Below are positions 8,329 through 28,172 of a stretch of DNA of 64,000 nt, one piece after another. The number at the start of each line of letters is the position of its first letter. Position 1 is the stretch's first letter. Below the pieces are notes generated by a model that saw only the letters and a program-made list of their open reading frames with translations, did not search any database and was not told the origin of the DNA. The position numbers were made by a program, and so were the translations under genes. The stretch is from Botryllus schlosseri. Lineage: Eukaryota. Where the stretch lies: positions 32,302,001 to 32,366,000 of the forward strand of contig CM119372.1 in the NCBI GenBank assembly GCA_051294905.1. The letters are read 5' to 3'.

Positions 8329-8555
8329 GGATCACATGCACTATACGCCGTCATTTCCCGTACACAGGGAACACGAGTAAAACAATGAATCCCCATGTGC
8401 ATTAATGATTCCCCATGTACATCCTTTTCTCCAAATGCCTTTTTTCTTTTTCATTCTCTCGAATTTCCAATGAAAAAGTGCTGACTCAGCGTATTTCTAG
8501 TTACGAGGTTTGAGTTTTTTCCGTCTGCTCCCATTGTAGAGCATTTCGCACCTCT

Positions 8556-11500
8556 TCATAATGTACAATTTTCTTGCCTTATAATCTCGGCAGGAATGGG
8601 TCCTTTGCATAGTATCACCTCAGGGTTTTGTGATTGTAGCAGAATGAGCCCTCTGCTTCTGGCTTCTGCAGCATTCACGTGAAAAGCAACATTTTTCATT
8701 TTTGATTTCCGCGCCTTTGTCTTACTCAGATGAATAAATTTCCTATTAATTCGTTCAATGCCCAATAATACGATGTGTCTCGCATTTGATTTAGTCGTCA
8801 TGTGGTACAATACGTCGTTACCTCTGTACTCCTTATACGGGGGAGGTGTTCCTCTGGTGTGTCCGTGTGCTGCGGCCAGTCCCGCGTCCGAAACTATAGC
8901 CCTGTCACACTTTCTCATGATGGTTTTAATTTCTTCGATATCCATCCGCATCCCTAGTTTTCTTTCGATTATTCGACATGTCTCTTCCCAAGGGTGGTAT
9001 CCATCGATTGAGTCATTGCAGTGCTCGTGTCGACAGTGAAACATCAATGCTCGTTGTATTTTTCCTTCTCGGGGCATTGTCTGCGGATACAGAGGTTTCT
9101 CATGTTCCGGAATCATGGTCCAAACGTGTGGATCGTCTTCCCCCGCGGCCATCTCCATCCAGTAGGATCGAGATAATCCATCTGACGTGAACACCTGCAA
9201 CGTACTTAGATGAATTACCTCCTTTATCTGAAATCCTGAGAGGTGATTTAGCCATCTCTGAATCAAAGGTTTCGGACTCGGATTTTTTGCCTTATCTGTC
9301 GTCCTTTTGAGAAGCCCAAATACTCCCGTGTTATCGGTGATTATCGTGAAGGGTAAAGCTCTCAACATTGACTGCCATTTTTCCACCGAATCCTTTAGGG
9401 CTTTCAATTCTTTTGTGCATTGATCATAGGCTTTTGCCGCTGAAGTTGCCCATTTCTGACTGTAATAAGCGATTGGGTACACCTTTCCAAAAGGCGGTTT
9501 GCCCCCCACCTCCGTTTGAAAGATTATAGAACCAAATCCTATTTCGGAGGCATCCGTTTCCACAAAAATGGGAAGATCAGGATCCAAGTGGTACAATACC
9601 TTAGTATCATCGAGGGATGCTTGTGCCGTTTTGTAATCTTCCAGCAATTCAGCGGTCCACAGTACCGGCGTCACTCGCCCTTGAGTTGCCGGGACCTTTC
9701 CTGTCAAAGCATCGAATTTTGCTAGCTTCAAGCTCAATTCTGGGATATGTTCAGAGATGTAGCGGAGAGCGCCAATCCACCCCCGTAACTCATATATATT
9801 GTGGGGTGGGGAAAGTTCTCGTAAAGCCCTTATTCGTTCGGGCTGAACTTCAATTTCTTTTCCCGTTAAGGTTGCTCCCAACAGGTTTACCTTCTTCTTT
9901 CCAATGAAACATTTGTTAATGCTCACCGTCAATTTCATTTTGGCAAGTTGTTCAAATAACAGACGCAAGAGCAGCAAATGGTCGTCTACTGTTTTTGTGC
10001 TAAGAAAAATGTCGTCTATGTAGGCCTCCATAGGCGTCGCATTCTCCTCATCCGACCGGCCATTTTGCTTCATGTGTTGTTGGTATCTTTCCGTGATGGG
10101 TTTCACTACGCATTCCTGCATATTCGCGCTCCAAAAAGCTACAGCTGTTTTGAGCCCCATTGGCATTTTACGCCATCTTACGTGCATCCCTTTGATGGCT
10201 ATACCCACATATTGCTTAGACCTTTCCGTGACATCCATGTGGAAATAGGCCTTCTTCAGATCCAAGAGAGAAAGTACTTCTCTTCCTTGGGCGAGCTGTT
10301 TTACATCTGGCACTAACGGCGGAGGTACTTCTATTGATTTTATAGCCGCATTTAGGGGTTGTAGATTCTGTACGACCCTCCATGCTTGTTTCCATCCGTC
10401 CTCCTGCTTCTGCCTCTCATTCATTTTCTGAGGAACAACAAAAATAGCTAACTTCCATTCGGCAAAACCTTGTTCGATGACGCCTAAATCCAGGAAGTTC
10501 TCTACCGCCTCCTTTAATGCCTTTGCCTGGCCCTCCCCCTTTAGATTATAAGGACCAGAAACAAAAGGCTTAGTTGAAGGATCCTTAAGCTCGATGTCGC
10601 ATGGATACTTCATAGTCTGTGGGGCGCCAAGGTGGCCCCGTAGGTCTTCGAGTTCCGACGCAAAAGGCGCGTAGACGGCTTTCCAGACATCATCTGGAAT
10701 GATTGTGTTTTCCGGAGTTGTCAAGTCAGGAGGTTTGTACGGGAGTTTAGCCAGTGCTACTGATTGTGCACAGAGGTTCTCGAGTTCCGTTTTTACGCTC
10801 GCATTGGTGTCCTTTTGTAGAATGTATGTGGTAACTGGGCCAGCCATAGGCTGATACGACTTTCGTGATGTTCGGGGTTTTGGTGTTGGTGGAGAGAGGG
10901 CGAGGTCCTTCGTTGTCAGCGGGGATTCCCTACCTTTCCAATCTGACCTCTGAGCTCGGTGCGTGCCCGCACTTACCGTCACGCCGACGGACTCAATCTC
11001 CGCCGGGGGCCCTATTTCTGGGGAGACGTGCATCCTAAAATCCCCAGACTCCTCGTCGGTCATATCCAGACCCGTGTCCGGTTGACCGACGATAGCTGCT
11101 TCGTTAATACCTTTTGGGAATGTAGTTAAGACATGAGCTGCCGTAATGCTACTATGGGCCGAACAGTTACATTTGTCCGGACAAGTGCATCTACGAGAGC
11201 TTTCAGGACCAACTCTCTCGCGTGGGTCCTCATTTGCGCCAGCGGGGATTCCACACTCGACGTCTTCAAGAATAGTGCCAGCAGGGATTCCTGACTCGAC
11301 ACTTGGAGTTTCCCATAGGTCTTGTGTGACGTTAGTTGCGCTTTTCAACTCGTCGTTCGCGCCAGTGGTGATTACCATCTCGACACTTGCGCCAGCGGCG
11401 ACGGCTGGCAACGATGGCCAGCGCGCCGATTCGACGCTTACCTGATTTGCAGCTTCCATCAACCCATCGTTGGTCGCAGTTTTGCAAAGACTGCTTCCGA

Positions 11501-12041
11501 CTTTGGTTCCATTCCGTTGATCACACGAGATATCGTGGTATAATGTTAACAAAGACAACTCTTCATTTGCGTTAGACGGAGTTTTGAACTCAGTCGCTAT
11601 GTTTGGTAATTGCTGTACCTGATCAATCCATTTCAATCCCACAATATTGAGCGGGACCCCTTTCCCGGTCGCAAATGGAACCGACAGACCGTCAAAATCG
11701 ATTACTACCAAGGAATCAACGTGGGATGAGCCACCTATACCACGTAATTTCATGTCTAAGGGTTGGCGCTCATCCCAACTTCGTGGGTATTTAGTCTTCG
11801 CGACATTTTTCATTATCAAATTGGGGATGCTTCCCGCATCAGCCAGGAATTTTGTACCAGTAGTTGTATCAATTAAATACAAGAGTTGGCCGCCGAACAG
11901 TTCCGTGAAATCCGGCTGCAAAGGGTCATCCGGTGTATCAAGGAACGTAAATAGGGGTAGGGAATCATTATGTACAATTTTTGCGTGTTGGGGTAGTAAA
12001 TTATCTGGGAGCTGATTCACCGGATCAATCAGCACCCCCAT
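8556..12041 (-). CDS. pol: Pol polyprotein, Ty3/gypsy-like: PR, spacer, RT, RNase H, IN Zn-finger remnant, Tpt1/KptA-like domain
   Basis: PR FLADAGS...IVGL; RT LDLKKAYFHM, MPMGL, YIDD, KVNLLG; RNase H ETDAS, PIAYYS, KEL, TDN, DGLSR; no DDE core; C-terminal YHMT...RKFIHLS...SQNPEVIL. Confidence 0.95.
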   Translation of the reverse strand: MGVLIDPVNQLPDNLLPQHAKIVHNDSLPLFTFLDTPDDPLQPDFTELFGGQLLYLIDTTTGTKFLADAGSIPNLIMKNVAKTKYPRSWDERQPLDMKLRGIGGSSHVDSLVVIDFDGLSVPFATGKGVPLNIVGLKWIDQVQQLPNIATEFKTPSNANEELSLLTLYHDISCDQRNGTKVGSSLCKTATNDGLMEAANQVSVESARWPSLPAVAAGASVEMVITTGANDELKSATNVTQDLWETPSVESGIPAGTILEDVECGIPAGANEDPRERVGPESSRRCTCPDKCNCSAHSSITAAHVLTTFPKGINEAAIVGQPDTGLDMTDEESGDFRMHVSPEIGPPAEIESVGVTVSAGTHRAQRSDWKGRESPLTTKDLALSPPTPKPRTSRKSYQPMAGPVTTYILQKDTNASVKTELENLCAQSVALAKLPYKPPDLTTPENTIIPDDVWKAVYAPFASELEDLRGHLGAPQTMKYPCDIELKDPSTKPFVSGPYNLKGEGQAKALKEAVENFLDLGVIEQGFAEWKLAIFVVPQKMNERQKQEDGWKQAWRVVQNLQPLNAAIKSIEVPPPLVPDVKQLAQGREVLSLLDLKKAYFHMDVTERSKQYVGIAIKGMHVRWRKMPMGLKTAVAFWSANMQECVVKPITERYQQHMKQNGRSDEENATPMEAYIDDIFLSTKTVDDHLLLLRLLFEQLAKMKLTVSINKCFIGKKKVNLLGATLTGKEIEVQPERIRALRELSPPHNIYELRGWIGALRYISEHIPELSLKLAKFDALTGKVPATQGRVTPVLWTAELLEDYKTAQASLDDTKVLYHLDPDLPIFVETDASEIGFGSIIFQTEVGGKPPFGKVYPIAYYSQKWATSAAKAYDQCTKELKALKDSVEKWQSMLRALPFTIITDNTGVFGLLKRTTDKAKNPSPKPLIQRWLNHLSGFQIKEVIHLSTLQVFTSDGLSRSYWMEMAAGEDDPHVWTMIPEHEKPLYPQTMPREGKIQRALMFHCRHEHCNDSIDGYHPWEETCRIIERKLGMRMDIEEIKTIMRKCDRAIVSDAGLAAAHGHTRGTPPPYKEYRGNDVLYHMTTKSNARHIVLLGIERINRKFIHLSKTKARKSKMKNVAFHVNAAEARSRGLILLQSQNPEVILCKGPIPAEIIRQENCTL

Positions 12042-12050
12042 GCGTTTTTT
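12007..12050 (-). promoter_or_regulatory. -1 programmed ribosomal frameshift signal (gag-pol)
   Basis: A AAA AAC at 12050-12044 is in gag phase (TCA AAA AAC); pol is in the -1 frame; downstream hairpin GGG-T-GCTGATT...AATCAGC-T-CCC. Confidence 0.85.
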
Positions 12051-14872
12051 GAGAGTCGAATGCCTTGATTCAGTTCATCATCCGTCCAATATGAAGCGTC
12101 ATATCGACGTGGACGATTATGATATTGTGGTTCCGTCCAGGCCACCTGGCTATTACCCTGGGTTTGGTGTGCAGGCGGTCCTTGAGGACCCCATTGATCC
12201 CTATCATGCCAGTGGGTTCTATCTCGATTTTTTGGCCTGTTATCATAATAGGCTTCACACAAAGCGGTCCTTTGTGTAAATGAGGGAGATCCTTGCGTGG
12301 CAAGATACTGGTCAAGACCCTCAATCGTTAGCATGTTATTTCTTGTCAGGAAAGATTTCCAATTACGTTCCGCCGATTCTTTGACGCTTGGGGGCACTGG
12401 ACGTGCTCGCGTACGAACTATCCACCCCTGGTGTTCATCATAGGCGAGAACCTGATTGTTTAGCCAAAGTATAAATTTAGCCACACAACTACGGGACTGA
12501 TGTCCCGGGGCCTTACAGTAATAACACACCGAGAGTGACTGGCCTTGAGAGGGATTCAAATACAAGCCTAGAGGTGCGAAAATATTAGGGTTTCCAAGAA
12601 AATTGTACCTCTCACCTTGGCTCTCCGCAATGTTGCGGGCCTCCCGGCTGCTAGACGGAGTAATTTGCGAGCTGTCTACGCCCATTCCTGAGTCCTGTGT
12701 GTTCGCCATTCGAGGACTACGGTTTGAAGTGCTTGACCTTTGACTAGAACGTCGTGGTCCCGTGGTTTCGGGCGGCGCATTACGAACATTTGGAGGTCGC
12801 TCTTGTCTTGACCTCGGGGCCTGTACTCTTCTGCCGCGTCCATTTCCATTCATGACGTGCGTGGGTGGACGGTTGATCCGAGCGTTACGGAGTGGATTAC
12901 GGCGTGGTAGAGGGGTTTGGCCCGTGCCGGTCAGTCGTCGTGGTGACATTTGTCTTGGCGGTCCAGGGGGTGTCCCGCCCAAGACATTCGGTGGCGGCTG
13001 GGGTGGGGGTGATTGCGCCATTGGCGGCGGTGTCACACCTGGTGGTGGTGGAGGAGGAGTATCAAGTCGTCCATCCTCGCCACCGTGGGTCGGATAGCTG
13101 TGTACTATTGGTCCTGCAGGCTGAACATTATATATATGTACCGGCGGTAGGGAAGGCTTCGTTTCACGTGTTTGACCAGTTCCCCGATTCTTGGAACGCG
13201 TCTCCTGTTCGTCCAGAAATTCGGAGTTCCAAACAAGCTGTAGTTCCTCCGCAACTTCCCGCCAAGTCTTTTTTTCTTCCCAGCCTCGTAGCATTAGTCT
13301 GAGTGCCTCTGGTAATCGTTGTCGTAGATTTCGGAAAAGTCGCAGTCCATCCTGGTTATCCTTAATGTCACTTTCCATGTTTATTTCTAATTGTTTCAAG
13401 GCGCTATTTAGCAGCGGTAGGGGTTCGTCCTCCCAGCGGTAATTTCTACGGAAATCCCCGATGATCTTTTCATCATTTACCAAGCCCTGAGGGTTGGATA
13501 AAGAAAGGGATCTCATTACCGAAGCCCACTCTGCTTCCCCCGAATTTGTGTTGAAGAAATTCCCCAGTTGGGTTGCCTGCTTGTGGCGGCCAGCATCCCT
13601 TAACTTCTTCTGCATGGCGTTTGCCAAAATAACATCAGCATCCGTGTTTCCTGGGCCGTGACGTATTCGTCTCATCGAATTTGCCATCCATTTCAGAAGT
13701 GGCATGTCTCCAGGATCCATCATAAGCTGAAGCATCTCTTTTTCCGATTGGGGTTTAACGGGTATGGTGATCATCGGGGTTGTGACACCAGGTTGTTGTC
13801 GTGACCGTTGTGTCCCAGACCTTACACCATTATCTTTTGGAGTAGAAGTAAAACGAGGCATATTAGGGTACCCGGGGCTGTGAGATTGGCCCTCATCAGA
13901 ATATTCGTCAGTAAAATCATCATGGCTGTAGCTGTCTTGGAGTGACTTTTGGTAATTTCTTATCTCTTTAGCCAGACGTCGCATTCGAAAATCGATGTCG
14001 CCACTCTCTGAATTGTTCTCCTCGTTTCGCTGGTCCTCCTGTTCCAGAAATGTCACACGTCTAGATTCGCCATCCGCACTTCCTGCCCTCCTTCGAGAGT
14101 CTACCACTGCCCTACGACGGTTCTGGCGGTTTTGCCATGCCCGATAGCCTTTATACTTGTCCAGAGGGCCCTCTTCAGGATCTGACTCGGCCCGGGATTC
14201 GTCTCCCTCAACCCTGACAGTGTTCGGTATTTCGCCGGGACTCCCTTTTTTCTGCTTGGCACGCGCACCGCTGTCCACATGAAAACACGGTGTCGTTCCC
14301 TTACGGGAGCCTAACAACGCGGTCGGCCCTGAACTAGGTATCGTAGGGTATACAGCCTTTACCGTATGGCAATCTAAACCTTTCGTGACCGTCATTGTAG
14401 GCATTTGCGTTACGTCGTGTAATGACTGTTCAGTAAGAGGATCGTACGCTGGAGGATCGTAAGCTGGTGCGTTTGGTAGTACAGTCAAAACAGGAGTTGG
14501 AGTTCTTTCCTTTACAGCTTGCGCATGTGATTTTCCGAGGTCGAACTCTGACGCAAGAATTTCATTTAGTACTTCGGTAGAGACTTTCCCGCTAACTTTT
14601 GTGGTGGCATCGCACACAGCTTTGAGGTCCGCTTGAGCTTTTCGTACTTCTTTCTTTGCCTTTTCCAGCCCTTTCATAGTGTCGGGCAGGGTCGTCTTAA
14701 CTTCTTTTAATAAATCTGCTTGTTCAGCAACATCTTTAGCAAGTTGCCTTTCTTGTCGTCGAACATCATCATGACGTTTTTGCGTCGCTTTTAGCAGCCT
14801 GATTCCTTGTTCGAGCTCGCTGGCCGCTTCTGACGACTTTTTCCTTTTAAACCTTCTTAACATTCTTCGCAT
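12029..14872 (-). CDS. gag: Gag-like polyprotein, 947 aa
   Basis: N-terminal coiled coil, PPAY motif, proline-rich region, CCHC knuckle CYYCKAPGHQSRSC; directly upstream of pol. Confidence 0.9.
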   Translation of the reverse strand: MRRMLRRFKRKKSSEAASELEQGIRLLKATQKRHDDVRRQERQLAKDVAEQADLLKEVKTTLPDTMKGLEKAKKEVRKAQADLKAVCDATTKVSGKVSTEVLNEILASEFDLGKSHAQAVKERTPTPVLTVLPNAPAYDPPAYDPLTEQSLHDVTQMPTMTVTKGLDCHTVKAVYPTIPSSGPTALLGSRKGTTPCFHVDSGARAKQKKGSPGEIPNTVRVEGDESRAESDPEEGPLDKYKGYRAWQNRQNRRRAVVDSRRRAGSADGESRRVTFLEQEDQRNEENNSESGDIDFRMRRLAKEIRNYQKSLQDSYSHDDFTDEYSDEGQSHSPGYPNMPRFTSTPKDNGVRSGTQRSRQQPGVTTPMITIPVKPQSEKEMLQLMMDPGDMPLLKWMANSMRRIRHGPGNTDADVILANAMQKKLRDAGRHKQATQLGNFFNTNSGEAEWASVMRSLSLSNPQGLVNDEKIIGDFRRNYRWEDEPLPLLNSALKQLEINMESDIKDNQDGLRLFRNLRQRLPEALRLMLRGWEEKKTWREVAEELQLVWNSEFLDEQETRSKNRGTGQTRETKPSLPPVHIYNVQPAGPIVHSYPTHGGEDGRLDTPPPPPPGVTPPPMAQSPPPQPPPNVLGGTPPGPPRQMSPRRLTGTGQTPLPRRNPLRNARINRPPTHVMNGNGRGRRVQAPRSRQERPPNVRNAPPETTGPRRSSQRSSTSNRSPRMANTQDSGMGVDSSQITPSSSREARNIAESQGERYNFLGNPNIFAPLGLYLNPSQGQSLSVCYYCKAPGHQSRSCVAKFILWLNNQVLAYDEHQGWIVRTRARPVPPSVKESAERNWKSFLTRNNMLTIEGLDQYLATQGSPSFTQRTALCEAYYDNRPKNRDRTHWHDRDQWGPQGPPAHQTQGNSQVAWTEPQYHNRPRRYDASYWTDDELNQGIRLSKNAWGC

Positions 14873-14880
14873 AGCACTTC

Positions 14881-15228
14881 CTATTGGCTGGAGGAAGTAC
14901 TATTGACAGCTAGTTGTATATCAGAAGAAGATTCGTCAAAAAATGACGTTGATCTGGGTGACGTAGCAGTAGACGTAGAATTGGCGTGAATAAGCGTAAT
15001 TTCACTACTGTTCTCCGTTGGTCCTGGCGACGCGCTGGTAGGTGTAATATTTGTAGTGTTTAGCGTGGATTCACTACTATTTGGCCCAACAATTGCGTTC
15101 AACAGATCAACAAACGCTCCTGGCGACACGTGTAAATAAACTGCTGCCAACGTAATCAGGAGAGATACAAATGATGAAATCAAGGATATGACAAGTACCA
15201 ATTTTGCGATAGTCGTCTTAGAGAGCAT
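14881..15228 (-). CDS. ORF0: small type II membrane glycoprotein, 115 aa from the first ATG
   Basis: MLSKTTIAK, then a hydrophobic helix, then an S/T-rich tail with six N-x-S/T sequons; lies between PBS and gag. Confidence 0.65.
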   Translation of the reverse strand: MLSKTTIAKLVLVISLISSFVSLLITLAAVYLHVSPGAFVDLLNAIVGPNSSESTLNTTNITPTSASPGPTENSSEITLIHANSTSTATSPRSTSFFDESSSDIQLAVNSTSSSQ

Positions 15229-15257: not shown

Positions 15258-15275
15258 ATCCCAGTGGTGCCTCCA
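15258..15275 (-). promoter_or_regulatory. Primer binding site, tRNA-Thr type
   Basis: TGGAGGCACCACTGGGAT matches 17/18 the complement of vertebrate-type tRNA-Thr(AGT) 3' end as recalled (TGGAGGCACCGCTGGGAT); preceded by CA plus a 2-nt spacer. Confidence 0.85.
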
Positions 15276-15277
15276 AT

Positions 15278-16430
15278 TGTGTTTAAAGTGCGGCTCCGAT
15301 AACGATCGTTATTGCGAGTAGTCCACACTTGGTTCGGTATACTTCGTGGTACAAAGTTGACTCTTTCTTTTACTCTTGACGTACTCAGATGTTGATTGAA
15401 GCAATAGTAGTTGTAATGTTGTTTCTTGTCAAGTTGACAATGACCTTGAGGTCCAGAATTCTAAACTAACCTTGATAACTGGTAAGCTTATACCTTAATA
15501 CAACCAAATACTCCAATCGTTATCATGCAGACAGAATGAGGTATCTAAGCAAAACTCGGTTAATATTGGCATATAGAATATCCATCAATTATAACACAAG
15601 ATAAAGCTTAAACCTATTCATATTCATGCACGAATTAATGTATTTTAAATACTCCAAGGTTTGTTTTCGCATATAAACTATGCGACGGCCTTTCCTGCCG
15701 AAGTGGTATCTTTCAGGGTTTGTTAACACATAACTAATGTGACGGCCTTTCCAGCCGAAAAATAGCTCATAGGTTTGTTTACACATATAATGCATGTGAC
15801 GGCCTGTTCTGCCGTAAAGCAGCTCCAAGGTTAGTTTACACACATAATGCATGTGACGGCCTGTCCTGCCGTAAAGTTCATTTATGACATATCGCTACAT
15901 TGTACACCATTCAATCACAATAGTCATGCACGAACTAATGTTTTCTGTTATATCTCTGGGTTCCTTTAGTATCGGTGTGTATAAGCTTTTTATTCATTCG
16001 TATGTACCGTGTCTCACAAACAATAGATTTGATTTACCACGAATCTTTAACTCTACACATGCTCCAATAAGGTAGAGGTTCCTAGCTTAGTCTAAGGGTG
16101 CGTAGCTAGTTATAACGCGTAACTCCGGGAGGTTCCAACATTAAGGACTTCTTATCGTTGACCCGATTAACATGGCCATATGCCAATTAAAGTGCACTTG
16201 TTGATACTACCCTTAACAAGGTGTTGCTTATTCGAACACTGTTAGATACCCAGGGTCCCTTTTACGGGTTTCTGAAGAATACCCTAAACATTTCTAATCC
16301 TAGGCTTCTATCCCGCTAGGGTGAAGGGTCCCGACACTAATATAGGGCGTGGTCGGTGTATAACGCCTAATTAAAGCCTACAGGCGTAGTACTCGCTATA
16401 ATGTTACTGTAGTAACAACCAATTATTCAC
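15278..16430 (-). repeat. LTR-like region; U5 end CA at 15278, far boundary undefined, no second copy in window
   Basis: aaacaCA-AT-TGG junction; candidate AGTAAA poly(A) signal near 15370-15375; enhancer-like tandem repeats. Confidence 0.55.
15652..15876. repeat. Four tandem ~56-bp repeats, U3 enhancer-like
   Basis: Core g(c/t)gacggcct.t.c.gccg.a recurs four times. Confidence 0.85.
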
Positions 16431-16476
16431 ACAATAAATGTTCACTAACCCATACACATATCTACGACATAAAATG

Positions 16477-17150
16477 TTAGCGCCATTTTAAAGCAACCTG
16501 ATGGTATTGATCAAAGATACAGTAAAGGCAGTGCTTGAACAAAATGGCGTCACTATGCAATATTACATCAAAGTAACCCTCACATGAAAATACCAATGTC
16601 CTGTTATGACTCGTGCGTCTCGTCATCATGCCGCAGATTGATTCATGTCGTTGTTCGTCAAACGCATCTTCTCCGATCTCCATCATGGTATGTCCAGGAC
16701 ATATTTGGCAACCGTACATTTGGGTACTTTCGTCTCGTGCATCTATTTCGAACCCGATTTCTTCAACTCCCTTGATAATGAAACGATTCTTCTGCGTATC
16801 TTTCCTTGATTTTGCAGTCGTCTTCGTCGTCTCCTTTCTTCGTTATCTTTAACGTGAGCTTTGGCGGGCATTGTTCGGCACATTTCAACCTCTGGTTCAC
16901 TGGTCCCTGCTGAGCAGTGATTTTTAGCGCCGGATTTCTTCTTATCTCTTCTATTTCACTTCATTAAGCCCTAGATTCTATCGAGGGGAGCAGTCATTCG
17001 GGACTGTCGAATAGAAATTTTAGAGTTGGTACCACCAAGTCGTTTTTTTAATGCCAATAGAATGTCCAGTCCATCTCGATATTCTCATGCCATTTCATCA
17101 CTCCACCCAGTCTTATTATGGTCTTATTGAGAGCAAGTCATTAAGTTCTC
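16477..17150 (-). pseudogene. Decayed orphan ORF
   Basis: Protein-like segments (MKWHENIEMDWTFYWH*, EIEEIRRNPALK..., IKGVEEIGFEIDARDESTQMYGCQICPGH...KWR*) broken by stops and one frameshift. Confidence 0.45.
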
Positions 17151-17589
17151 GGCATGTTTTCCAGACGCTCTTCTTGTCATACAAGTTTTAGATACACTCG
17201 ATGCGCACAGAGAGGACATTAAAACACACACATATCAGAATTTCGCGTCATTTGCTATCGTAACGTTGTCACAATACAATAATTCGCATGCACGTACTGA
17301 TCATGGTGCCATAAGTGCACTCGTAAGACACATCCATTTCGTGAAACGAATGTGCAAACAAGGCGGGTCTTATTCTAATGTCATACTCAATCATCGACAC
17401 ATCAGTTTCGAAAAACGAATGTGTGGACAAGTTCAACCATGGGTTACTTTTCTAAGGTCTTTATTTTAGCAGTACTGGCTTGAGGTATTCCTAATGTTAT
17501 AGGCCTATTATTTCCGGTTATAATGTTCATTTTTATTCAACTTATGTAGTTCCATAGCCATTCACGACGTAGCTACGTTGTAAATCGCT

Positions 17590-18455
17590 ATGGTAGTGCC
17601 CTAAACGTTTTGTAAAATCTGTCCGTCTTACCCAGGATCTAAAATCAAGGTACGGAGCTGTATCCATTGTGGATATCGTCCTTAACATTTTGGAAAATCT
17701 GTCCGTCTTATCCAAGATCTAACATCAAGGTACGGATCTATATCCATTGTGGATATGGTCCTTAACATTTTGGAAAATCTGTCCGTCTTATCCAAGATCT
17801 AGAATCAAGGTACGGATGTATCAATTTTAGTAAGCCTTAACGTTTTGGAATATTTGACGGTCTTCTCCAGGGTCTAGCACCGAGGTACCGATATATATTA
17901 ATTATAGTGGCCCTAATCGTTTTGGAAAATCTGTCCGTCTTATCCAGGATCTAACATCAAGGTACGGATGACTATTGATTACAATAGTAGCCCTAAACTT
18001 TTGGAATATATTTCGGTCTTCTCCAGGGTCTACCACCGAGGTACCGATATATATTAATTATAGTGGCCCTAATCGTTTTGGAAAATCTGTCCGTCTTATC
18101 CAGGATCTAACATCAAGGTACGGATATATATTAATTATAGTGGCCCTAATCGTTTTGGAAAATCTGTCCGTCTTATCCAGGACCTAACATCAAGGTACGG
18201 ATATATATTAATTATAGTGGCCCTAATCGTTTTGGAAAATCTGTCCGTCTTATCCAGGACCTAACATCAAGGTACGGATATATATTAATTATAGTGGCCC
18301 TAATCGTTTTGGAAAATCTGTCCGTCTTATCCAGGACCTAACATCAAGGTACGGATATATATTAATTATAGTGGCCCTAATCGTTTTGGAAAATCTGTCC
18401 GTCTTATCCAGGACCTAACATCAAGGTACGGATATATATCCATTGCGGATATGGT
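17590..18455. repeat. Tandem array of ~11 units of 77-80 bp
   Basis: Unit cgttttggaaaatctgtccgtcttatccaggacctaacatcaaggtacggatatatattaattatagtggccctaat; exact 77-bp period at 18151, 18228, 18305, 18382. Confidence 0.95.
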
Positions 18456-18489
18456 TCTTTTTGTTGCCATCTTGTTCGACGCAACGCTT

Positions 18490-20100
18490 CTAATATCTTT
18501 TCACCTTTTGGTTTGTCAAGCATTCTCATTAGGGTCCGAGCCCAAGTCCAATCCAACTACTTCCTCATGGTACACACGACACATGACGCGTGTCCATTTA
18601 AACTACTTCCTCGTGTTACATACAACATGAGTTGAGTTTTTGCAGTAGCACTCTGGCTGTCAACCGGCTGCATGTAATATGTGCGGTGACAGTTCTCGGC
18701 AGCTCACATTTGAGCGCAACACCGGCTGAATAAATAAACAGCCACTGATAGCGCCCAAAATGAAGCAACCTAGTAAAAGCCTAGAAACCTATTGCCCCCC
18801 ACAAAGGCATTTTTTTCATTGTTTTATAATATTTTTTTGTGAAAATGATTTTATACTCCGTATAACTTTTATCTTTGATTTTCGCTTTCGTAATTTTTTA
18901 TATATTATGTACATGTTTTAGAATCTATTGATTTTATAATTTTGTTCGCATTGGGTTTTCATTTTTTTGGATTTTTTTCTTAGTGGGTATTATACTATGA
19001 TGCAATGCGCGTATATACACAATTTAATATATCTCTCCACCCCATCCTTCCCCCCTTTTTTGACAGGGATTGTCAACAGTCACATTCCTTTCAGCACACT
19101 TACAACGTGTCAACTGGGAGGCGAGGTCTTCCCATAGTTCACCAAAGTGTTATACTGGATAGGAAGTGCCGAGAGACGTGCTCATCATTTATTTACATTA
19201 CGCCATCACGTGAGCACCTGATAGGCTTAATTTTCCCCATTAATATAAACCGTCAGACACTCAAAAAGAAAACACCTCTTACCATTTGGTAAGTGCCAAG
19301 CGGTGCCATTGGTATCCATCGAGTGAGAGGGGTGCCGAGAGGCAGGGATGGGAGAATGTCTTCTACATAGATTTACATATGCGAGTTAGATATAGTCAAT
19401 AAAAGTAAATTTTATATCCTTATGAAATTCTTGATGTATTGTGCGTCCGTCACGATCGCGAATTCAAAAAATTTATAATATATAAGCAGCAATTTAAAAC
19501 ACTTTGATGTCTCATAGTTATATCACTAATATCTCGCGGAGCCGACTGTAGCGAGGACTAAGAAAAAGGAAAAAATATAAGTAAATTAGAAACTCAAATA
19601 TAATTAGTAGATTAGCAAAAACATTTCATAATGAAAATAGGGTGATTTTTCACGGGGCAGGGGGTCTGGGAATGTTATCCGCTTTTTGTTACTATCTTCT
19701 CCTTCTTATGACGATTATTCGGGTTGACGAGCGATCGCAATTGGACCACACTAGTCTCGTAAATGATTGTGGCGTTAAAACAAATCATTCACTACAATGA
19801 GCGAACCTAATTGCATTTGTACCATCCGAATTAATATAAACATTTTGTGTAACAGACAATAAATGTAAAGCAGACTATCACTGAAGACAAAACATGTTCT
19901 ATACTTATTCGAAAATTCATTTTTGTATATAAGGTGGAAATTGAGCAGCTTGCATTCGAGTAATTGAACTATCCGTAGTCCCCGAGATGTTATTTCAGGG
20001 TCACACTTAGCGATTCAATCACAATACAATGTCCTTTACTTTCTGGAACTTAACATAAATTTTGTGTATCGGTATAATAAATCCGTGTATATAATAAATG
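18490..20100. repeat. Diverged direct repeat module A (module B at ~30865-32140)
   Basis: Collinear blocks cactgatagcgc, cccaca(a)aggcatt, gagtgag..ggtgcc, gattagcaaa..catt and cagact.tca...gacaaa. Confidence 0.75.
18516..18810 (-). pseudogene. Decayed gene, copy A (paralog of 30890-31199)
   Basis: GAISGCLFIQPVLRSNVSCRELSPH and VYHEEVVGLDLGSDPNENA* align with copy B with mostly synonymous changes; stops and frameshifts elsewhere. Confidence 0.7.
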
Positions 20101-20390: not shown

Positions 20391-20843
20391 CTACAGTTGG
20401 TTAGCATATTCTCGTATTAACGGGAATGCAACGTCAAGTAATTCTTCCGTTGAAAGTAATAATGCAATCGGAGATGTTACGTCTAGATGAGGAATACGAG
20501 ACGAAACTACATTCTCATGGATATGATCACTTATTGGATGCAGTCCCACGACGAATGTATACCAACAATATTGAGCACTTTCAAATTGTTCCAACACTAA
20601 CATTCTAGCGACTGCACAATGTTTATCATATATTGCCTTCCATAAACTGTCCGAGGGGGGTTTTCCGAAGCATTTCTTCAAGTATGTAGACATTGTTGCT
20701 TTTATAGTACCCATTGATGAAGCTGCCCATTCATCAAAACTCCTGTTTTGATATTCCGCTTCAAATATATCAAAGTATTCATTGATTTCTTGTTTTGCCT
20801 CTTCTACCTCCCAAGTCTTTACCGTAATAGTTTCATTAGACAT
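20391..20843 (-). CDS. Orphan family A protein, copy 1
   Basis: Shares W..E.AK..I..Y...FE.EY..R.FD.W and A.Y.W.....LHP with 22117-22521 and 22518-22973. Confidence 0.75.
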   Translation of the reverse strand: MSNETITVKTWEVEEAKQEINEYFDIFEAEYQNRSFDEWAASSMGTIKATMSTYLKKCFGKPPSDSLWKAIYDKHCAVARMLVLEQFESAQYCWYTFVVGLHPISDHIHENVVSSRIPHLDVTSPIALLLSTEELLDVAFPLIREYANQL

Positions 20844-21023
20844 ATTCGATATGAGTTTTAGGCACTAAACACAAAAGATCTTATGACTCTATGGCTCTAT
20901 GACTATGACCGATAGGGTTTGCACGAAAGATTATGTGCATCTACAAATGAATCACGCATACTATGTATGTTGATGACGCGTTTTAGCTATTTTGTCTTAC
21001 TTAATGGTACGCCACCCATGGAT

Positions 21024-21479
21024 TCACTTAGCATACATCTCAGTCCAGTCTCGTGCCGTTTTCTGATAACGATCGAAATTATCTCGATACATCCTGGCAC
21101 TTTCTTCATCCATTGGATCATCAGGATTCGGAGAAGCCAGAAGTGAAGAAATCGATATTAATATCATTACCAAAGTCAAAACTGGAGACCACTTATCAGA
21201 GAGGATGTCGATGCAAATTGTACCCTTTCGACTTATATTTGGATGAAAAATCTTCGTATTGAATGTAATTTTAGGTGGTTTGAAGGGATATTCCGTGGGG
21301 AATTCAACTCTCATATGGAATGTCCCTCCATCGTACGGTGTTTCTGGTGGTCCACACAACATCGCATGCCAAACAAAGATATCTGATTCATCGAAGGGCC
21401 CCGCTTGCAAAATTGCGGGATTTGTTTGGATTTCTCGAGCGATTTTTAGTCGTTCGAAATGTAGTCTTTTCTTCGCCAT
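21024..21479 (-). CDS. Ubiquitin-conjugating enzyme E2, UBE2D/E-like, intronless; start MAKKR
   Basis: YPFKPPK, HPN tripeptide, active-site Cys in GTICIDIL, WSP, PNPDDP. Confidence 0.95.
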   Translation of the reverse strand: MAKKRLHFERLKIAREIQTNPAILQAGPFDESDIFVWHAMLCGPPETPYDGGTFHMRVEFPTEYPFKPPKITFNTKIFHPNISRKGTICIDILSDKWSPVLTLVMILISISSLLASPNPDDPMDEESARMYRDNFDRYQKTARDWTEMYAK

Positions 21480-21547
21480 TCGACGTAGTACTATGCTATC
21501 AATTAATCTTATATATGCAAAAAAAACAAAAAATGGGAAGATAGGTA

Positions 21548-22000
21548 TTACCAAAACAATCTTCTGTCTATCGCATACATATCACGTGAAAGACTTGCAA
21601 TAGTTCTACGCGAAATGTGCCAATCCTCGTCAACATTAACCATGGCCAATATATAGAGTAGAAATACATACAGGTAGTATGCAGGACTTTCCCCAAACTT
21701 TTCCTTCACAATACGTTCCAACATTTCGTTAGCACATTTCAGTTGTTCTCTCACCTCCTGGTCCCGGTATAGCCAAACGAGGAAATCCTTCAATACGAAT
21801 TCCATGTCACTAGCTGTCATAGTCGGAAAGTTTTTCACTTTTTCTCTTATCCGTTCATGTACAATCCCAATCCTCAGCCATGCAACTCTGCTGTCAGGAA
21901 TTGTAGGATATGGACATGGTTTAAATTTGTTGCGATCCAATCCCTTTCTTTGGGGATCCTTGAGTACATATGAATAATTCTCACCATATACTTCTAGCAT
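21548..22000 (-). CDS. Orphan protein, 150 aa
   Basis: ATG-initiated ORF tightly packed in the same-strand cluster; no motif recognised. Confidence 0.6.
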   Translation of the reverse strand: MLEVYGENYSYVLKDPQRKGLDRNKFKPCPYPTIPDSRVAWLRIGIVHERIREKVKNFPTMTASDMEFVLKDFLVWLYRDQEVREQLKCANEMLERIVKEKFGESPAYYLYVFLLYILAMVNVDEDWHISRRTIASLSRDMYAIDRRLFW

Positions 22001-22116
22001 TTTACTTTTGTAGTTTCCTTAAATATATAATTCCTGGTTATAAATGACCCACCCTTTTAAATCAAACATAAACAATCAATTTTCATCCAAACGTACGTCT
22101 AGAACTCAAAACATGT

Positions 22117-22521
22117 TTAATTAGGTTCCAAATGTGCTCCTATCCATTGTATTGGGAAATCATCTTTCATGGGATGCATATGGACAATATGTTTGTACCA
22201 AAGAAATTTGGCTTCTTTATAGTTTCCCAGAGTTATGATCGCAATTCGATTATGTTCTTCAATAGCGGCTTGATATCCAAAAGCTTTTCCTTGTAAGGAC
22301 AATGAATTCCTATAAACTTTGTCCACGTACGGCGTCAACATTCTGACAATGTCGTTCGGTCTTGTCATAGCCCATCTTGACCACCTGTCGGATATTTCTA
22401 CGTATTCTTCATAGTATTTACAGAACATACCAAAATAGAATTTAAAATCATTTGCTGCCGATTCATGTTCAATCTGTATCCATTCCCTTTTACTTATAGA
22501 TTTTCGAGGCATACCTCTCAA
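22117..22521 (-). CDS. Orphan family A protein, copy 2 (diverged)
   Basis: W...E...A...F..YF, RW, EH..IA...L.N...A...W...IV..HP pattern. Confidence 0.7.
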   Translation of the reverse strand: MRGMPRKSISKREWIQIEHESAANDFKFYFGMFCKYYEEYVEISDRWSRWAMTRPNDIVRMLTPYVDKVYRNSLSLQGKAFGYQAAIEEHNRIAIITLGNYKEAKFLWYKHIVHMHPMKDDFPIQWIGAHLEPN

Positions 22522-22973
22522 TCGTGTAAAACAACAATTTTTGCAAAAGCGACTTCTAAAATCGGAATAGCAACAGTTTTAAATTCTCGTTTAGTTAATA
22601 GTAACGCCGTAGGGGTTCGCAAATTCATTTGCGGTAAGCGTTCATCCACAAACTCTTTGGGTAAATATTCGTGAGCTGGATGCAGCTTGAAGATGAGTCC
22701 GAACCATGTGTATTGGGCCTGATCAAAATTTTTCATAACAAAAACACGAGCAATTTCACCGTGAGCGTTATAAAGCCTATCAAGTAGTTCGGGGTTTACA
22801 TCCGCAAAACATAGGTGTAGATATTTAGCCAATAATTGTTCAAATTTTTCTTTCGGAGTAGCTTTCCATTTATCAAAATTTCGATGATGATATTCTTGCT
22901 CGAATGCATCTTAGTATTTGCTGATTTGTTGTTTAGCTAGCGTAATTTCCCAATTTTCTAACACACTAGTCAT
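22518..22973 (-). pseudogene. Orphan family A, copy 3, with one premature TAA at 22913-22911
   Basis: MTSVLENWEITLAKQQISKY*DAFEQEYHHRNFDKW continues in frame into ORF 22518-22832 and aligns with copy 1. Confidence 0.8.
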
Positions 22974-22988
22974 CTTAATACAACAAAA

Positions 22989-23849
22989 TCACATTGAAAT
23001 CATATACTCAATATCACAAGTAAATGATTCGTAAGAACAAGGATGAATAGTATAATTCTGCACTGTACATGTTCTGGTCGTAAAGTTTCTTATTGTGCCT
23101 CTAAGTCCCAAATCATCTTGACAATGCCAAAATTCAGATTTATTTATCATTATATCATCAACATTTCCAAGAACATCGTAGTAAGATGTTTTTGGAATTA
23201 TGGTATCCGTTGCCTTGGATATTGCCCCCCTCAGTAATTCATATATCATTAATCTTCTCCCGAAATCTTCCTGCAGATCACGAGTTGAAAGTATGACATT
23301 TATCATATTATTAATGCTTTCCAGATCTTGCGGTGATACATGAGGGTATAAACCTTCCGTCACGAACAATTTGTTCTTGCTCAAATATGGTATCTCTTCA
23401 TCATTCATTCCAGGTCCATCCGAATCCAAAATTTCTTCCAATGTCTGTTTGAAATAAGTATGATCTCCTTCATATTTGTCATCAGAATCACTCTCCCGCC
23501 CATCCATATCCGGCCAATACTGTTGTACAGGGGAATGTATCATCCAATCCTCTCGTTCCACGATCAATTCCCAAACCTTATTGAGAAAGTCTTGTTGTTG
23601 GTTTTGATCCTTTCCCGTAAGTTTACGAATATCAATGGCTTTCAATGATTCATAAATTCTGCGTATGTTACGGCAGTTTTGTTCGACAGCATCCTCGACT
23701 TTCAAAGTGTGACCATACCTGTCACGTACATTTTGAAATTCTATCATACTAGTACCCATTTCTCCAAAACTTAATAACAAAAATTTTAGAATTGAAACAG
23801 CCATCCCAGTACACCATACGCACTCAAAACTGCAGTATTCACTAATCAC
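22989..23849 (-). CDS. Orphan family B protein, copy 1; true start probably downstream of the GTG
   Basis: C-terminal IYELLRGAISKATDTII...WHCQDDLGLRG motif shared with two other ORFs. Confidence 0.75.
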   Translation of the reverse strand: MISEYCSFECVWCTGMAVSILKFLLLSFGEMGTSMIEFQNVRDRYGHTLKVEDAVEQNCRNIRRIYESLKAIDIRKLTGKDQNQQQDFLNKVWELIVEREDWMIHSPVQQYWPDMDGRESDSDDKYEGDHTYFKQTLEEILDSDGPGMNDEEIPYLSKNKLFVTEGLYPHVSPQDLESINNMINVILSTRDLQEDFGRRLMIYELLRGAISKATDTIIPKTSYYDVLGNVDDIMINKSEFWHCQDDLGLRGTIRNFTTRTCTVQNYTIHPCSYESFTCDIEYMISM

Positions 23850-23950
23850 CTCTTCAAAATATGAGCACTAACATATTAAAATGTTATTTTTGCTAGGTAA
23901 ACTAGCAATATACCAGCCTAGCAACAAGATTAATAGTCCTGCCTGTCCCG

Positions 23951-25639
23951 TCAAGCTCTATACACTTTGATTTTCTCGCATATCTTTACATCACAGATGA
24001 GGCATCGTTCTACATTGGTCGCGCACCTTTCACAAGAACATAGGTGTCCGCAGGGTATGAAAGTTACTTCACTCCTGTTTTTCCTGCATTGTTGACAAAA
24101 CACAGTCTCTTGTACTTCTTTTATACTTTTGGCGAGATCCTCTGTAGAAATAGATTCCGATATAGCTTCATTCTTCATTCCTTCTCTGGCACTTATGTCA
24201 CTATTTTTTTCAAGGATATTAGTTACTCGATGGTTTGTCGTTTGTGGATTAACCGATGTAATACTTGGTGTCGTAAGTAAGTCTTGAATAATGTCCCTTA
24301 ATTCACCACGGAAACCATTGTCTCGTCTGTTGATAGCTCTTTCTATTTGTCCTCTCGTAAATCCCATATTTTCCAATTGCATCCTTTTTCCGTATTCTTC
24401 AAGCGAGCTTGTCATGTTTCGACGTCCCTCGTCCTGTAGCTCGTCCAGACATATCCCATTCCTTATCGAAGGTCGATTAAGATTGGGGTGTTCATTCTTC
24501 AGGCGCAATACGAAATCAACGCCTTTCATTTGAAAAACGTACTCGCAACCTGGGAACCACTTAGCATGTTCTGTCCATGGTTCGTCGTTGTAATCCCAAT
24601 TTTGCAAACCTCCGTTACAATAGAAACACTTTGTCTTATCTGCATTTCCAAGGAAAAACAGACCAGCTCTCGCCAACTGTTCAACTGGCGCAAGAATTCT
24701 TTGTCTTGGCCATTTATCGTTAAAGGAATCTATTCTTTGTTGCAACGTCATCATATGTGAATTTATCGGATATAGGCAAGGAAATCGTTCAATCAACCTA
24801 AGCTGTTCTTCCGGTGAAGGTTCCGGCGGTTCTCCAGTATTAGTCGTTAACCTCTCAATTTTTTTTCGAATATTGTCATCCGCTTGATTCCTTTCAGATT
24901 CCGTCATTGGTACATTTCCCGTATAGTCGTCGTTTACAATCCTGCACTTGGCAAAATGTATTTGATGTTGTTCGATTATATTATCAGTAGGTGCCCAGTT
25001 TCGAAGTACTCCCGAACACGAAAAACATTGTGTTCTATCTAGGTTTCCAAGATAGAAAAATCCTTGTTTGGCTAATTCCCCCACCAAATATGGAGCAGGG
25101 TAGGATGGCCATTTGTCAAAGGTTTTCCTCCTCTCGAACTCACTTCTCAAATTCATGGTTCGCAGTAATATCTCATGTTCTCGGTCACAAATATTAGCGA
25201 ATATGGTTTGTGGTAATTGATGCTCCAGCTCTCTGGTAGTTGTTCTTCTTGTATCCCGATCAGACCGAGTTCTTGTGAAGTTAAAGTTACCCCTTATGTG
25301 TCCAAAAAAAATCCTCGTAGAACAGTTCGAAATAGTCACGTTGTAGCCCTCTCGTCCCGACACCATACTGCAAGTAGCTTCATGCCAACGATTGTCCAAG
25401 ACATCGTCTTCAATGTCCCAGTTTTCCACGCAAATGCCGCAGCCAAAGCACTTTACTATATCTTTATATCCCGTCCAATAAAAACCCGCAGCTGCCAGAT
25501 AAATCGGCATTACAGGAATTTCCTTAGGATAATGTTTGAACGTTGCAAGTCTATAATTTTCCACCCAATGATTCCCAGGTGGTATATAGGTACAGTTCTG
25601 ACCAGGAAGATCGCGATCTCTGTTTGTACGGACCCCCAT
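23951..25639 (-). CDS. Inhibitor of apoptosis protein: 3 BIR + UBA-like + RING, intronless
   Basis: BIR2 and BIR3 have canonical CX2CX16HX6C; BIR1 is degenerate; MGF UBA motif; C-terminal RING CQQC...PCGH..CERC...CLIC. Confidence 0.95.
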   Translation of the reverse strand: MGVRTNRDRDLPGQNCTYIPPGNHWVENYRLATFKHYPKEIPVMPIYLAAAGFYWTGYKDIVKCFGCGICVENWDIEDDVLDNRWHEATCSMVSGREGYNVTISNCSTRIFFGHIRGNFNFTRTRSDRDTRRTTTRELEHQLPQTIFANICDREHEILLRTMNLRSEFERRKTFDKWPSYPAPYLVGELAKQGFFYLGNLDRTQCFSCSGVLRNWAPTDNIIEQHQIHFAKCRIVNDDYTGNVPMTESERNQADDNIRKKIERLTTNTGEPPEPSPEEQLRLIERFPCLYPINSHMMTLQQRIDSFNDKWPRQRILAPVEQLARAGLFFLGNADKTKCFYCNGGLQNWDYNDEPWTEHAKWFPGCEYVFQMKGVDFVLRLKNEHPNLNRPSIRNGICLDELQDEGRRNMTSSLEEYGKRMQLENMGFTRGQIERAINRRDNGFRGELRDIIQDLLTTPSITSVNPQTTNHRVTNILEKNSDISAREGMKNEAISESISTEDLAKSIKEVQETVFCQQCRKNRSEVTFIPCGHLCSCERCATNVERCLICDVKICEKIKVYRA

Positions 25640-26089
25640 ATTTATTTTTTTTCCTTAAATTCTATTTTTCGGTGTAGTAGTACATGGCAGAACAGGCATT
25701 CATCTATACTAGGTCGAGGTGATGGTCTCTCAGGTGAATATACCTTATTTACTCAATTCCATCATAATCATACAATTGTTCTGTACACAACACGGAGACA
25801 AGATAAATAAAAACATTGCACAATAAAATATCTCAAACTTGTAACAAGAGACTCTCTAACAAAACTTCAACAACATTTCACATTCAACATCTCATACCAT
25901 TCTCCTTGTCTCACCAGGTGGTTCTAATCAACATTATTTTTCATTTGATATTTCAATCTAATGGAAGAACGATAATAATATACAATTTTTTCATAGTTCA
26001 CGATTGATATGGCCCGCATTCCAAGTGATTTAGCAATCTCCATGGGTTAGAGGTTAGGCCGTCGTTTAATCATTTTGACAAATGAACAC

Positions 26090-26908
26090 TTAATAACGAG
26101 AATTTCGGTAAACAATGTTGGAATTTTCCAAAAATAGGTTCATTGACTGAGCGTTGCTATTAACTCTTTTCGAATATATGTATATATATCCATCCATTGC
26201 AACAGTTTTCGAGTCCAGTATCAAATACCCTTTCACTCCAAAATTCGTTTGACTATGCCAAGTCCACGCGGAGCTAGCACTTCTTATATGACTAAGATCG
26301 TTTGTGCGTATCAAAATATTCGTATATTTCATCACTACTCCACGTATCACTTCATATATTACTTGCCTTATTCCTGAGGGAGGTATCCTTCTGATTACCC
26401 CTAGCAGAGTTTCCGTAATTATAGCCCACGAAATTTCATCCGGCTGTATAGTTTGTTCCTTCCATACTTTTATGCTTTGTCGCTGTGATGAATTCTTTAC
26501 GATGGCAGAATCTTGGGAGTCGTCGGAGTCCGTATCATCGAACGTATCTGAGTCCAAATCGTTCTCTGTTTCGTCCTTAATCGTCCAATCTTGGGTTTTA
26601 CAGATAGAGCATGAATGATGCCTTTTATACCAATTGTTTTCCTTTCCGAAGAAGGTTTTTAGCGCATCGGTTATTGATACAAGACACCGTGGATTTTTTG
26701 TTACCTCAATTTCATCAAGTTGTGTTATCAGATTGCGAAAAATGGCAGCGTTATGATTCCGTATATCGTCTAAATACATTATGTCACTATGAACACAAAA
26801 CGAAAACGTAACAGCAATAAAGGATTCAGTGTTATGTACGTGCACACTAACACTCCCATAGTACTTATGATACCAAGACTGTACTTGTGCTAGATTGCGT
26901 TGCAACAA
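26090..26908 (-). CDS. Orphan family B protein, copy 2; likely ATG at 26779
   Basis: IYEVIRGVVMKYTNILI...WHSQTNFGVKG motif; acidic D/S stretch. Confidence 0.7.
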   Translation of the reverse strand: MLQRNLAQVQSWYHKYYGSVSVHVHNTESFIAVTFSFCVHSDIMYLDDIRNHNAAIFRNLITQLDEIEVTKNPRCLVSITDALKTFFGKENNWYKRHHSCSICKTQDWTIKDETENDLDSDTFDDTDSDDSQDSAIVKNSSQRQSIKVWKEQTIQPDEISWAIITETLLGVIRRIPPSGIRQVIYEVIRGVVMKYTNILIRTNDLSHIRSASSAWTWHSQTNFGVKGYLILDSKTVAMDGYIYIYSKRVNSNAQSMNLFLENSNIVYRNSRY

Positions 26909-27150
26909 TTATTTTCAAACAAGCCGCATCCGTACCAATATCAACCGCTTTTTTATTTTTTATTTTTTTTTATTTTTATTTTTTTTAGTTAAGGAAAACA
27001 AAGGGCATATGAAATAGGATACTTGACTCCGGTACTCAAAACCGGCTGCTAACTCTTTAATATATACAATTTCCATCTTTAGTCAATTTCCAAGATAGAG
27101 GCATTCATGTTAAACAAATTTGATACTTTCAACAAATGCTATATCCAATA

Positions 27151-28098: not shown

Positions 28099-28172
28099 TT
28101 TCAATTTATAAAGTATACACTCCAGTATAACGTAGATTCTGTATATACAAAAAAATGAAACAATGAGCGTTT

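Follow-up and report, generated by a model that had tools for sequence, protein, structure and literature searches.

Introduction

Among LTR-type reverse-transcribing viruses, an integrase-free circular cycle has been described for the plant caulimoviruses. In the accessible text of the relevant papers, these viruses have no integrase and are maintained as minichromosomes (PMC11363490); copies in chromosomes occur opened, as tandems or in rearranged form, for the most part close to the tRNA site (PMC13658181). The locus described here, an island of retrovirus-like sequence in an animal genome, resembles the Caulimoviridae in having a tRNA-primed protease-RT-RNase H arrangement without integrase and in the opened, rearranged state of their chromosomal copies. 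It is unlike them in its animal host, in a primer site for tRNA-Thr rather than tRNA-Met, and in possessing a separate, frameshifted Gag, a Tpt1 domain, a TG...CA LTR-like unit, a length of about 25 kb and host-derived cargo. Furthermore, Pfam identified no movement protein in 18 long ORFs of the window, where several ORFs are without assignment.

The Metaviridae (Ty3/Gypsy), among them errantiviruses with env and rotifer elements with cargo, share with the island a capsid-like Gag fold with a CCHC motif, a -1 frameshift and the protease-RT-RNase H order, as well as a primer-binding site (PBS) two bases after CA and a polypurine tract (PPT) before TG, but here these last two signals belong to a single central unit. 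The island departs from that family in having no integrase, one LTR (in the copy analysed), a Tpt1 domain at the integrase position and a long separate branch. Kuafuorterviruses are likewise a deep, overlooked animal lineage, and a sporadic Exo_endo_phos domain occurs among them; as far as the accessible text goes, they have an integrase, two LTRs, an IADD, VADD or LADD motif in the RT and a length of 5-6 kb, whereas the island has YIDD (PMC11673190). Odin retrotransposons are another recent, deep and overlooked animal RT lineage and, within the same limit on the source, carry an integrase, two LTRs and a dual RNase H, in contrast to the single RNase H of the island (PMC9040795). Across the animal lineages compared (Kuafuorter, Odin, errantiviruses and rotifer elements), the accessible descriptions give an integrase or paired LTRs. 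By defining features, the element is outside Caulimoviridae, Kuafuorterviridae and standard Ty3/Gypsy.

DIRS and Ngaro elements have no DDE integrase, and circular intermediates have been proposed for them; they encode a tyrosine recombinase and are without protease and tRNA priming. The island, unlike these, has a protease and a PBS, and no tyrosine recombinase was found in the window by Pfam, PHROGs or NCBIfam. With Merlin/IS1595 transposons an island ORF shares a DDE transposase. Merlin elements normally have long terminal inverted repeats (TIRs), their ends consisting of TIRs and an 8-9 bp duplication, and TIRs were not found here.

Tpt1/KptA enzymes depend on an essential Arg-His-Arg-Arg tetrad, according to the accessible part of PMC10622864. 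Some ADP-ribosylate 5'-phosphate DNA or RNA ends while others strip terminal 2' or 3' phosphates; such end capping or healing is confined to a subset of the enzymes, and the role of Tpt1 outside fungal-type tRNA splicing is termed obscure in the accessible text of PMC6182162 and PMC6573784. The island domain is like these enzymes, of which viral versions exist, in its tetrad and NAD-lobe fold, and unlike them in being a C-terminal fusion to an RT-RNase H polyprotein. Neither the errantivirus survey nor the rotifer extra-ORF paper mentions Tpt1 or a phosphotransferase in its accessible text, and TPT1, named in one literature match, is a different gene from Tpt1/KptA. We found no published description of an RT-RNase H-Tpt1 lineage, in a search outside which lay subscription papers, Repbase and supplementary domain tables (e.g. 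PMC11673190, PMC13524379). An integrase-less RT-RNase H-Tpt1 lineage, overlooked in the initial annotation of this DNA, is the main finding of the present work.

Results

Extent and composition of the island

The stretch analysed (the window) is 64 kb long, and the island lies on its minus strand at about 8.36-33.24 kb, roughly 25 kb in all. The left compositional edge falls at 8390 (range 8010-8440); on the right, cumulative purine skew flattens near 33250, whereas a two-segment fit instead gives 31450. Tentative edges are provided by a direct repeat:

8350..8359, no strand: 10-bp direct repeat, left copy, tentative left edge
33239..33248, no strand: 10-bp direct repeat, right copy, tentative right edge

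As a lead to the true edges this repeat is suggestive only: it is not significant (15/500 shuffles; 75/562 host windows), and 2548 of 20000 random host pairs contain direct repeats of at least this length. Similarity between the edges was rejected as proof of a circle junction or a target-site duplication (TSD), not being significant, and no TSD is readable at LTR ends, neither island edge bearing an LTR.

Strand and purine skew are common to all parts of the island, and GC is 0.38 in the cargo versus 0.47-0.50 in gag-pol. Minus-strand ORFs cover 87% of 20391-30588 and 8% of 33231-60500. There is no envelope gene inside the island, and element-like sequence stops at most about 200 nt past the pol stop. 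A 15-nt purine tract (8438-8452, minus strand) lies about 100 nt past that stop, with TG 13 bases further and no similarity to the LTR start thereafter. About 20 bases outside the tentative left edge is a foldback element (8069-8328) with 114-bp arms that are 92% complementary.

A Pol polyprotein ending in a Tpt1 domain

8556..12074, minus strand: pol ORF, protease-RT-RNase H-Tpt1 and then stop (Pfam, tblastn, alignment)
11625..11897, minus strand: aspartic protease region (alignment with four relatives)
9168..10391, minus strand: RT (YIDD) and single RNase H, acidic catalytic motifs present
8574..9068, minus strand: Tpt1/KptA RNA 2'-phosphotransferase domain, Pol residues 1003-1167

The protease active-site motif of the window copy differs from that of its four aligned relatives, and this copy may therefore be inactive; a related fragment, P0144, matches Pfam RVP (E 6e-4). 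The domain at the C-terminus of Pol matches PF01885 at E 1e-7 and an NCBIfam Tpt1 model at E 1.6e-10 (below the whole-protein cut-off), and all of its sequence matches in the PDB are Tpt1. Its tetrad is Arg1015-His1016-Arg1058-Arg1111, with spacing as in PhoTpt1. A fold search with the predicted structure returned Tpt1 as the top four hits (Z 12.2, 10.6, 9.6 and 8.8), matching over the NAD lobe only; the RNA lobe of the model is of low confidence (pLDDT under 50). Among viral proteins, BFVD contains Tpt1-like folds of an RNA nidovirus, a baculovirus, giant viruses and phages. The domains matched by the model include one inside the replicase of a Botrylloides leachii nidovirus and one inside a nonstructural protein of a Melipona bee virus, which suggests that invertebrate viruses acquired Tpt1 more than once. 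The fusion of RT-RNase H to Tpt1 is solid and holds even if the circularity considered below fails.

The same Pol ending recurs in relatives

Four database proteins (P0001-P0004) match the window Pol at 36-41% over 92-99% of the region from the RT to the end, and a profile search added P0088, P0089, P0102, P0162 and fragments. In eight divergent database relatives a Tpt1 tail follows the RNase H as it does in the window Pol, and the Arg-His-Arg-Arg tetrad is complete in 8/9 aligned tails, P0089 having three of the four residues. With the same ending in its relatives, the Pol architecture, as judged by sequence comparison, marks a family and not a broken copy. Individual relatives show further variation: P0001 has an exonuclease-III-like EEP nuclease domain, another end-processing enzyme, after Tpt1; P0101 has a dUTPase after the RNase H; and in P0169 the end of Gag and the protease share one frame. 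A scan of GTDB for relatives gave 70 pattern matches, none of which was confirmed.

Most RT matches are Ty3/Gypsy-like, at 21-28% identity. We built RT-RNase H trees by quick searches on 48 and 35 rows, taken from 80 RT-RNase H cores plus caulimovirid rows after near-duplicates had been dropped; they contain one caulimovirid genus and are without retrovirus, Bel/Pao, Copia or DIRS references. Five relatives with the full RT-RNase H core form one clade with the window Pol (SH-aLRT 96-99). P0092, which falls inside this clade, ends 29 residues past the RNase H with neither Tpt1 nor integrase. The nearest sampled outgroup in the mixture-model tree consists of the integrase-bearing P0196 and P0215 (support 91), whereas the caulimovirid rows, which joined the clade at 95 on a long branch in one quick tree, stand apart. 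The best solved structure for the Pol profile was the CaMV RT (8R0S), at 136 bits versus 120 for Ty3 (about 17 apart). On these alignments, a loss of integrase independent of that in caulimoviruses is slightly favoured.

Searches for an integrase

No integrase was found by Pfam in 250 window ORFs (18 + 87 + 145, the last set taken from 215 short plus-strand ORFs). When 87 RT polyproteins, 72 of them listing rve, were compared with the window by tblastn, 0/88 matches lay outside pol, and with all 238 fetched proteins 0/364 lay outside gag-pol. The rve domain is absent in 24/24 scanned family proteins or fragments, and in the best 150 profile hits Tpt1 and an integrase are never joined in one family protein. 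In intact members, an integrase or recombinase may nevertheless be encoded by a gene of its own beyond pol.

Gag, ORF0 and the frameshift

14881..15228, minus strand: ORF0, 115 aa, with an N-terminal membrane anchor, 35% Ser/Thr and six N-glycosylation sequons (putative function)
12029..14872, minus strand: gag, 947 aa
12044..12050, minus strand: slippery heptamer A AAA AAC in the gag frame, predicting a -1 frameshift into pol

The N-terminus of Gag is coiled-coil-like by eye, and Pfam identifies a CCHC knuckle. A capsid-like helical domain lies at 13163-13750, with Atlas features at 0.93 to Retrotrans_gag clusters. A model of this domain matches the capsids of Ty1, foamy virus, Arc, MLV, copia and others at modest Z scores (5-6.6), intermixed with unrelated helical proteins, and Foldseek returned no match for it at E 0.001 in PDB or BFVD. 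Gag has three database relatives (P0236-P0238; 70, 59 and 32%). The heptamer is of a known slippery type; the hairpin downstream of it is not significant (15/200 shuffles, z -1.5).

A single LTR-like unit in the centre of the island

15258..15275, minus strand: primer-binding site, tRNA-Thr(AGT), 18 nt (complement compared with printed tRNA 3' fragments)
15278..19044, minus strand: candidate single LTR, TG...CA, 3767 bp (about 3.8 kb), boundaries inferred from motifs
19045..19061, minus strand: polypurine tract, 17 nt, then TG
15652..15877, no strand: 57-bp x 4 tandem array in the U5-like part
15989..16114, minus strand: TATAA (16114) and AATAAA (15994), a possible promoter/poly(A) pair with a short R (motif-level)
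16477..16842, minus strand: small ORF in the candidate U3, weakly like the first BIR of the cargo IAP (blastp E 2e-4)
17594..18439, no strand: 77-bp x 10.9 tandem array in U3

The minus strand reads CA (15279-15278), AT and then TGG, which opens the 18-nt primer site (15275-15258). The site precedes ORF0 by 47 nt and gag by about 400 nt. The complement of this site agrees with a printed tRF-3a of Thr-AGT at 16/17 bases (PMC10878346) and with a longer printed tRF-3 at 17/18, pairing ending at base 18 (PMC7330628), both as given in the accessible text; the match is near-perfect against mammalian tRNA, a reference that may differ from the host's own. The CA-AT-TGG junction with a tRNA-Thr PBS that the initial annotation had picked out is thus borne out. 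A loose version of the CA-PBS pattern occurs four times in the 64-kb window, only the occurrence at 15258-15279 heading gag, so that the weight of the junction lies in its tRNA match and its position.

Neither blastn nor nhmmer detected a second copy of 15278-16430 within the window, and local alignment of the DNA after pol with the start of U3 gave no significant match, in agreement with the earlier observation that no matching LTR follows pol. The same annotation had set the 5' end of the LTR at 16430, where we find no purine tract; 19044, directly after the PPT, is more likely. Among 24 minus-strand purine tracts of at least 12 bases, that at 19061-19045 is the only one followed directly by TG. 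The PPT-TG...CA-AT-PBS signals are contiguous in one run, present in single copy, and from the PPT-TG, TATA-like, AATAAA and CA-PBS signals we infer that the unit is an LTR. The promoter/poly(A) assignment is motif-level, the candidate LTR holding 17 TATAA and 3 AATAAA. The 77-bp array sits in an enhancer-like position and may act as such. Folding of the leader is weak (z -2.1).

A proposed captured one-LTR circle and its alternatives

The element combines a Gag with capsid-like fold and zinc knuckle, a PR-RT-RNase H-Tpt1 Pol whose ending its relatives share, a tRNA-Thr site and a PPT-contiguous LTR-like unit. On balance, we favour reading the island as one copy of an undescribed integrase-less lineage with Tpt1-ending Pol, in which a caulimovirus-like one-LTR circle was captured in the chromosome. 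Circularity is suggested by a single copy at one locus: a PPT-LTR-PBS run with genes on both sides has the look of a one-LTR circle opened elsewhere, and the LTR would be single and central because the circle opened between pol and cargo. A two-LTR linear form would be useless to an element without integrase. In the proposed cycle, a single promoter/poly(A) unit on the DNA circle would yield terminally redundant RNA. Gag would package this RNA, and reverse transcription, with priming from tRNA-Thr and the PPT, would turn it into a circle that persists as an episome; chromosomal copies would arise in the rare event that host repair captures a circle, here one opened between pol and cargo. A permuted one-LTR circle had already been proposed in the annotation. 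The absence of integrase from Pol here and in relatives and the contiguous PPT-LTR-PBS strengthen that part; the circle itself, seen from one copy, is plausible rather than proven. On the other proposal of the annotation, a head-to-tail tandem sharing one LTR, the data weigh neither way. The accompanying statement that random breakpoints imply circles was too strict, because 77% of complete endogenous florendovirus copies open by the tRNA site, in the accessible text of PMC13658181.

The alternative that survives best, although we consider it unlikely, is a conventional two-LTR element of a new lineage, in which separate ORFs behind pol would encode the integrating enzyme and env. In that case the window would contain a rearranged tandem sharing one LTR, or a copy truncated just past pol, with an env-like ORF from the upstream partner. 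Two features of the right flank bear on it:

57632..57821, plus strand: host alpha-spectrin exon with acceptor and donor signals, outside the element
60573..63884, minus strand: env-like ORF, intronless, 1103 aa, with furin-type site, Thr-rich stalk and C-terminal TM

The env-like ORF (60.6-63.9 kb) is on the same strand as the island, its codon usage correlates better with the cargo (0.74) than with pol (0.49), the element-like sequence ends soon after pol, and the sampled sister taxa carry an integrase, all of which favour the two-LTR reading. Against it, 27 kb of ORF-poor, host-like DNA including the spliced alpha-spectrin exon separates the ORF from the island; the 110 nt before the ORF are unlike the DNA after pol (299/500 shuffles score as well); a Tpt1-integrase fusion is missing from those best 150 profile hits; and Ty3/Gypsy-type elements hold their integrase inside Pol, in the accessible sources. 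The intervening host DNA also contradicts the initial annotation, in which the env-like ORF was a contiguous part of an env-cargo-LTR-gag-pol order. This ORF may belong to a related element continuing past the window. It has no homologue among 5786 candidates and none in Atlas, PHROGs or NCBIfam, shows only a weak transmembrane-region Pfam match, and has no similarity to ORF0.

The spectrin exon is the one host-exon match among 87 + 145 ORFs, so that either its introns are very long or it is part of a gene fragment. As a spliced alpha-spectrin exon, it indicates that the host is an animal. Both the island and the env-like ORF are antisense to it. Elsewhere in the flanks, an element at 2025-3407 with 34-bp perfect inverted ends and internal sub-repeats is probably a host non-autonomous DNA transposon, and old dispersed host repeats of 66-69% identity (1331-1838 with 49381-49860; 38149-38492 with 47999-48337) are not found in the island.

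A less probable alternative is a chimera in which a 5'-LTR-PBS-gag-pol fragment, 3'-truncated or non-autonomous, abuts an unrelated cargo element bounded by two repeat blocks, A and B. It turns on the cargo and its surroundings:

20391..30588, minus strand: intronless cargo cluster (E2, IAP, LRR, transposase, paralogues, unknown ORFs)
21024-21479, minus strand: ubiquitin E2
23951-25639, minus strand: IAP, 3 BIR + RING
27151..28098, minus strand: IS1595/Merlin-type DDE transposase ORF without terminal repeats of its own (NF033547, 99 bits, cut-off 75)
28796-29827, minus strand: LRR protein
18512..20090, minus strand: block B, non-coding, spans the PPT, 66-70% like block A
30886..32133, minus strand: block A, a duplicate of block B that has diverged and whose purine tract is degenerate
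32255..33224, minus strand: outermost unknown ORF, preceded by two 94-bp repeats

The cluster also holds two three-member paralogue families and unknown ORFs; the 94-bp repeats (32982-33075 and 33131-33224) are 91% identical. As the annotation had it, the cargo lies upstream of the LTR on the gag-pol strand, which 13/14 ORFs of at least 120 aa in 20.4-33.1 kb share. Because its GC differs from that of gag-pol and it has its own brackets, the diverged direct repeats A and B, the cargo could be a separate module, and this composition step and these repeats are what favour a chimera. However, before the TG of a 5' LTR host DNA would be expected and not a PPT, and the inner block, B, spans the PPT while one further ORF lies outside block A. 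The blocks are only 66-70% alike while the intervening ORFs are open; duplication in a replicating genome accounts for this better than aged LTRs do, and all parts have strand and purine skew in common. We found no repeats common to the cargo or island and the flanks.

Just inside block A and antisense to the cargo is a tRNA-like sequence (30745-30825, plus strand) with A- and B-box-like motifs by eye, which could be the head of a SINE or a small-RNA gene transcribed by Pol III. At standard thresholds neither ARAGORN tRNA genes nor Rfam families were found in the window, and relaxed ARAGORN output was noise.

We think it more improbable still that a Merlin/IS1595-type transposase replaces the integrase and integrates the circle at one defined position between pol and the cargo, making the permutation programmed rather than accidental. 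The transposase gene is open and has no terminal repeats of its own, and the repeat at the edges could also be interpreted as a duplication of 9 bp enclosing inverted termini of 4 bp, a pattern set post hoc that occurs in 415/20000 random pairs. However, Merlin elements usually have long TIRs. No TIRs were found around the transposase ORF, TIR and TSD signals around it or the island are at chance level, the inverted match at the island edges is 4 bp only, and the inverted sequences present are low-complexity 14-mers only, with no TIR plus duplication of at least 7 bp at 12 bp; the gene may be a passenger. Merlin is the eukaryotic counterpart of IS1595 (PMC3673617), and a herpesvirus with a co-opted piggyBac transposase (PMC5718144) offers a precedent, each in the accessible text of its source.

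Finally, an assembly artefact, with repeat collapse or a mis-join producing the single central LTR, could be imagined from the tandem arrays and the foldback element near the junctions, but it is highly implausible given that ORFs are open across the island, the array units are distinct and diverged, and the Pol architecture recurs in independent datasets.

Discussion

Under the favoured reading of a captured one-LTR circle, Tpt1 would protect nucleic-acid ends, in an NAD+-dependent manner, until the circle closes. Our preferred guess, at somewhat less than even odds given the rest of that explanation, is that the domain uses NAD+ to cap or heal phosphate ends at primer-removal sites of the new DNA or on RNA. 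Alternatively, given the Tpt1-like domains of unrelated viruses, the gene could have an accessory or general counter-defence role with no link to integrase loss. Likewise speculative is the view that the IAP, E2 and LRR genes are captured host-modulating genes.

Taken at its widest, the proposal would be of a family-level lineage of animal pararetroviruses in the Ortervirales, to which we give not quite an even chance. Its members would be episomal circles of the 25-kb class made by reverse transcription, with an independent loss of integrase, Tpt1 end-capping in its place and captured anti-apoptosis and ubiquitin genes, and would enter the germ line via permuted accidental insertions only. 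If true, this would represent a second route from retrotransposon to pararetrovirus, in animals and with a much larger genome, and pipelines that rely on paired LTRs or an integrase would overlook the lineage. The element is also a concrete setting for Tpt1 function beyond fungal-type tRNA splicing.
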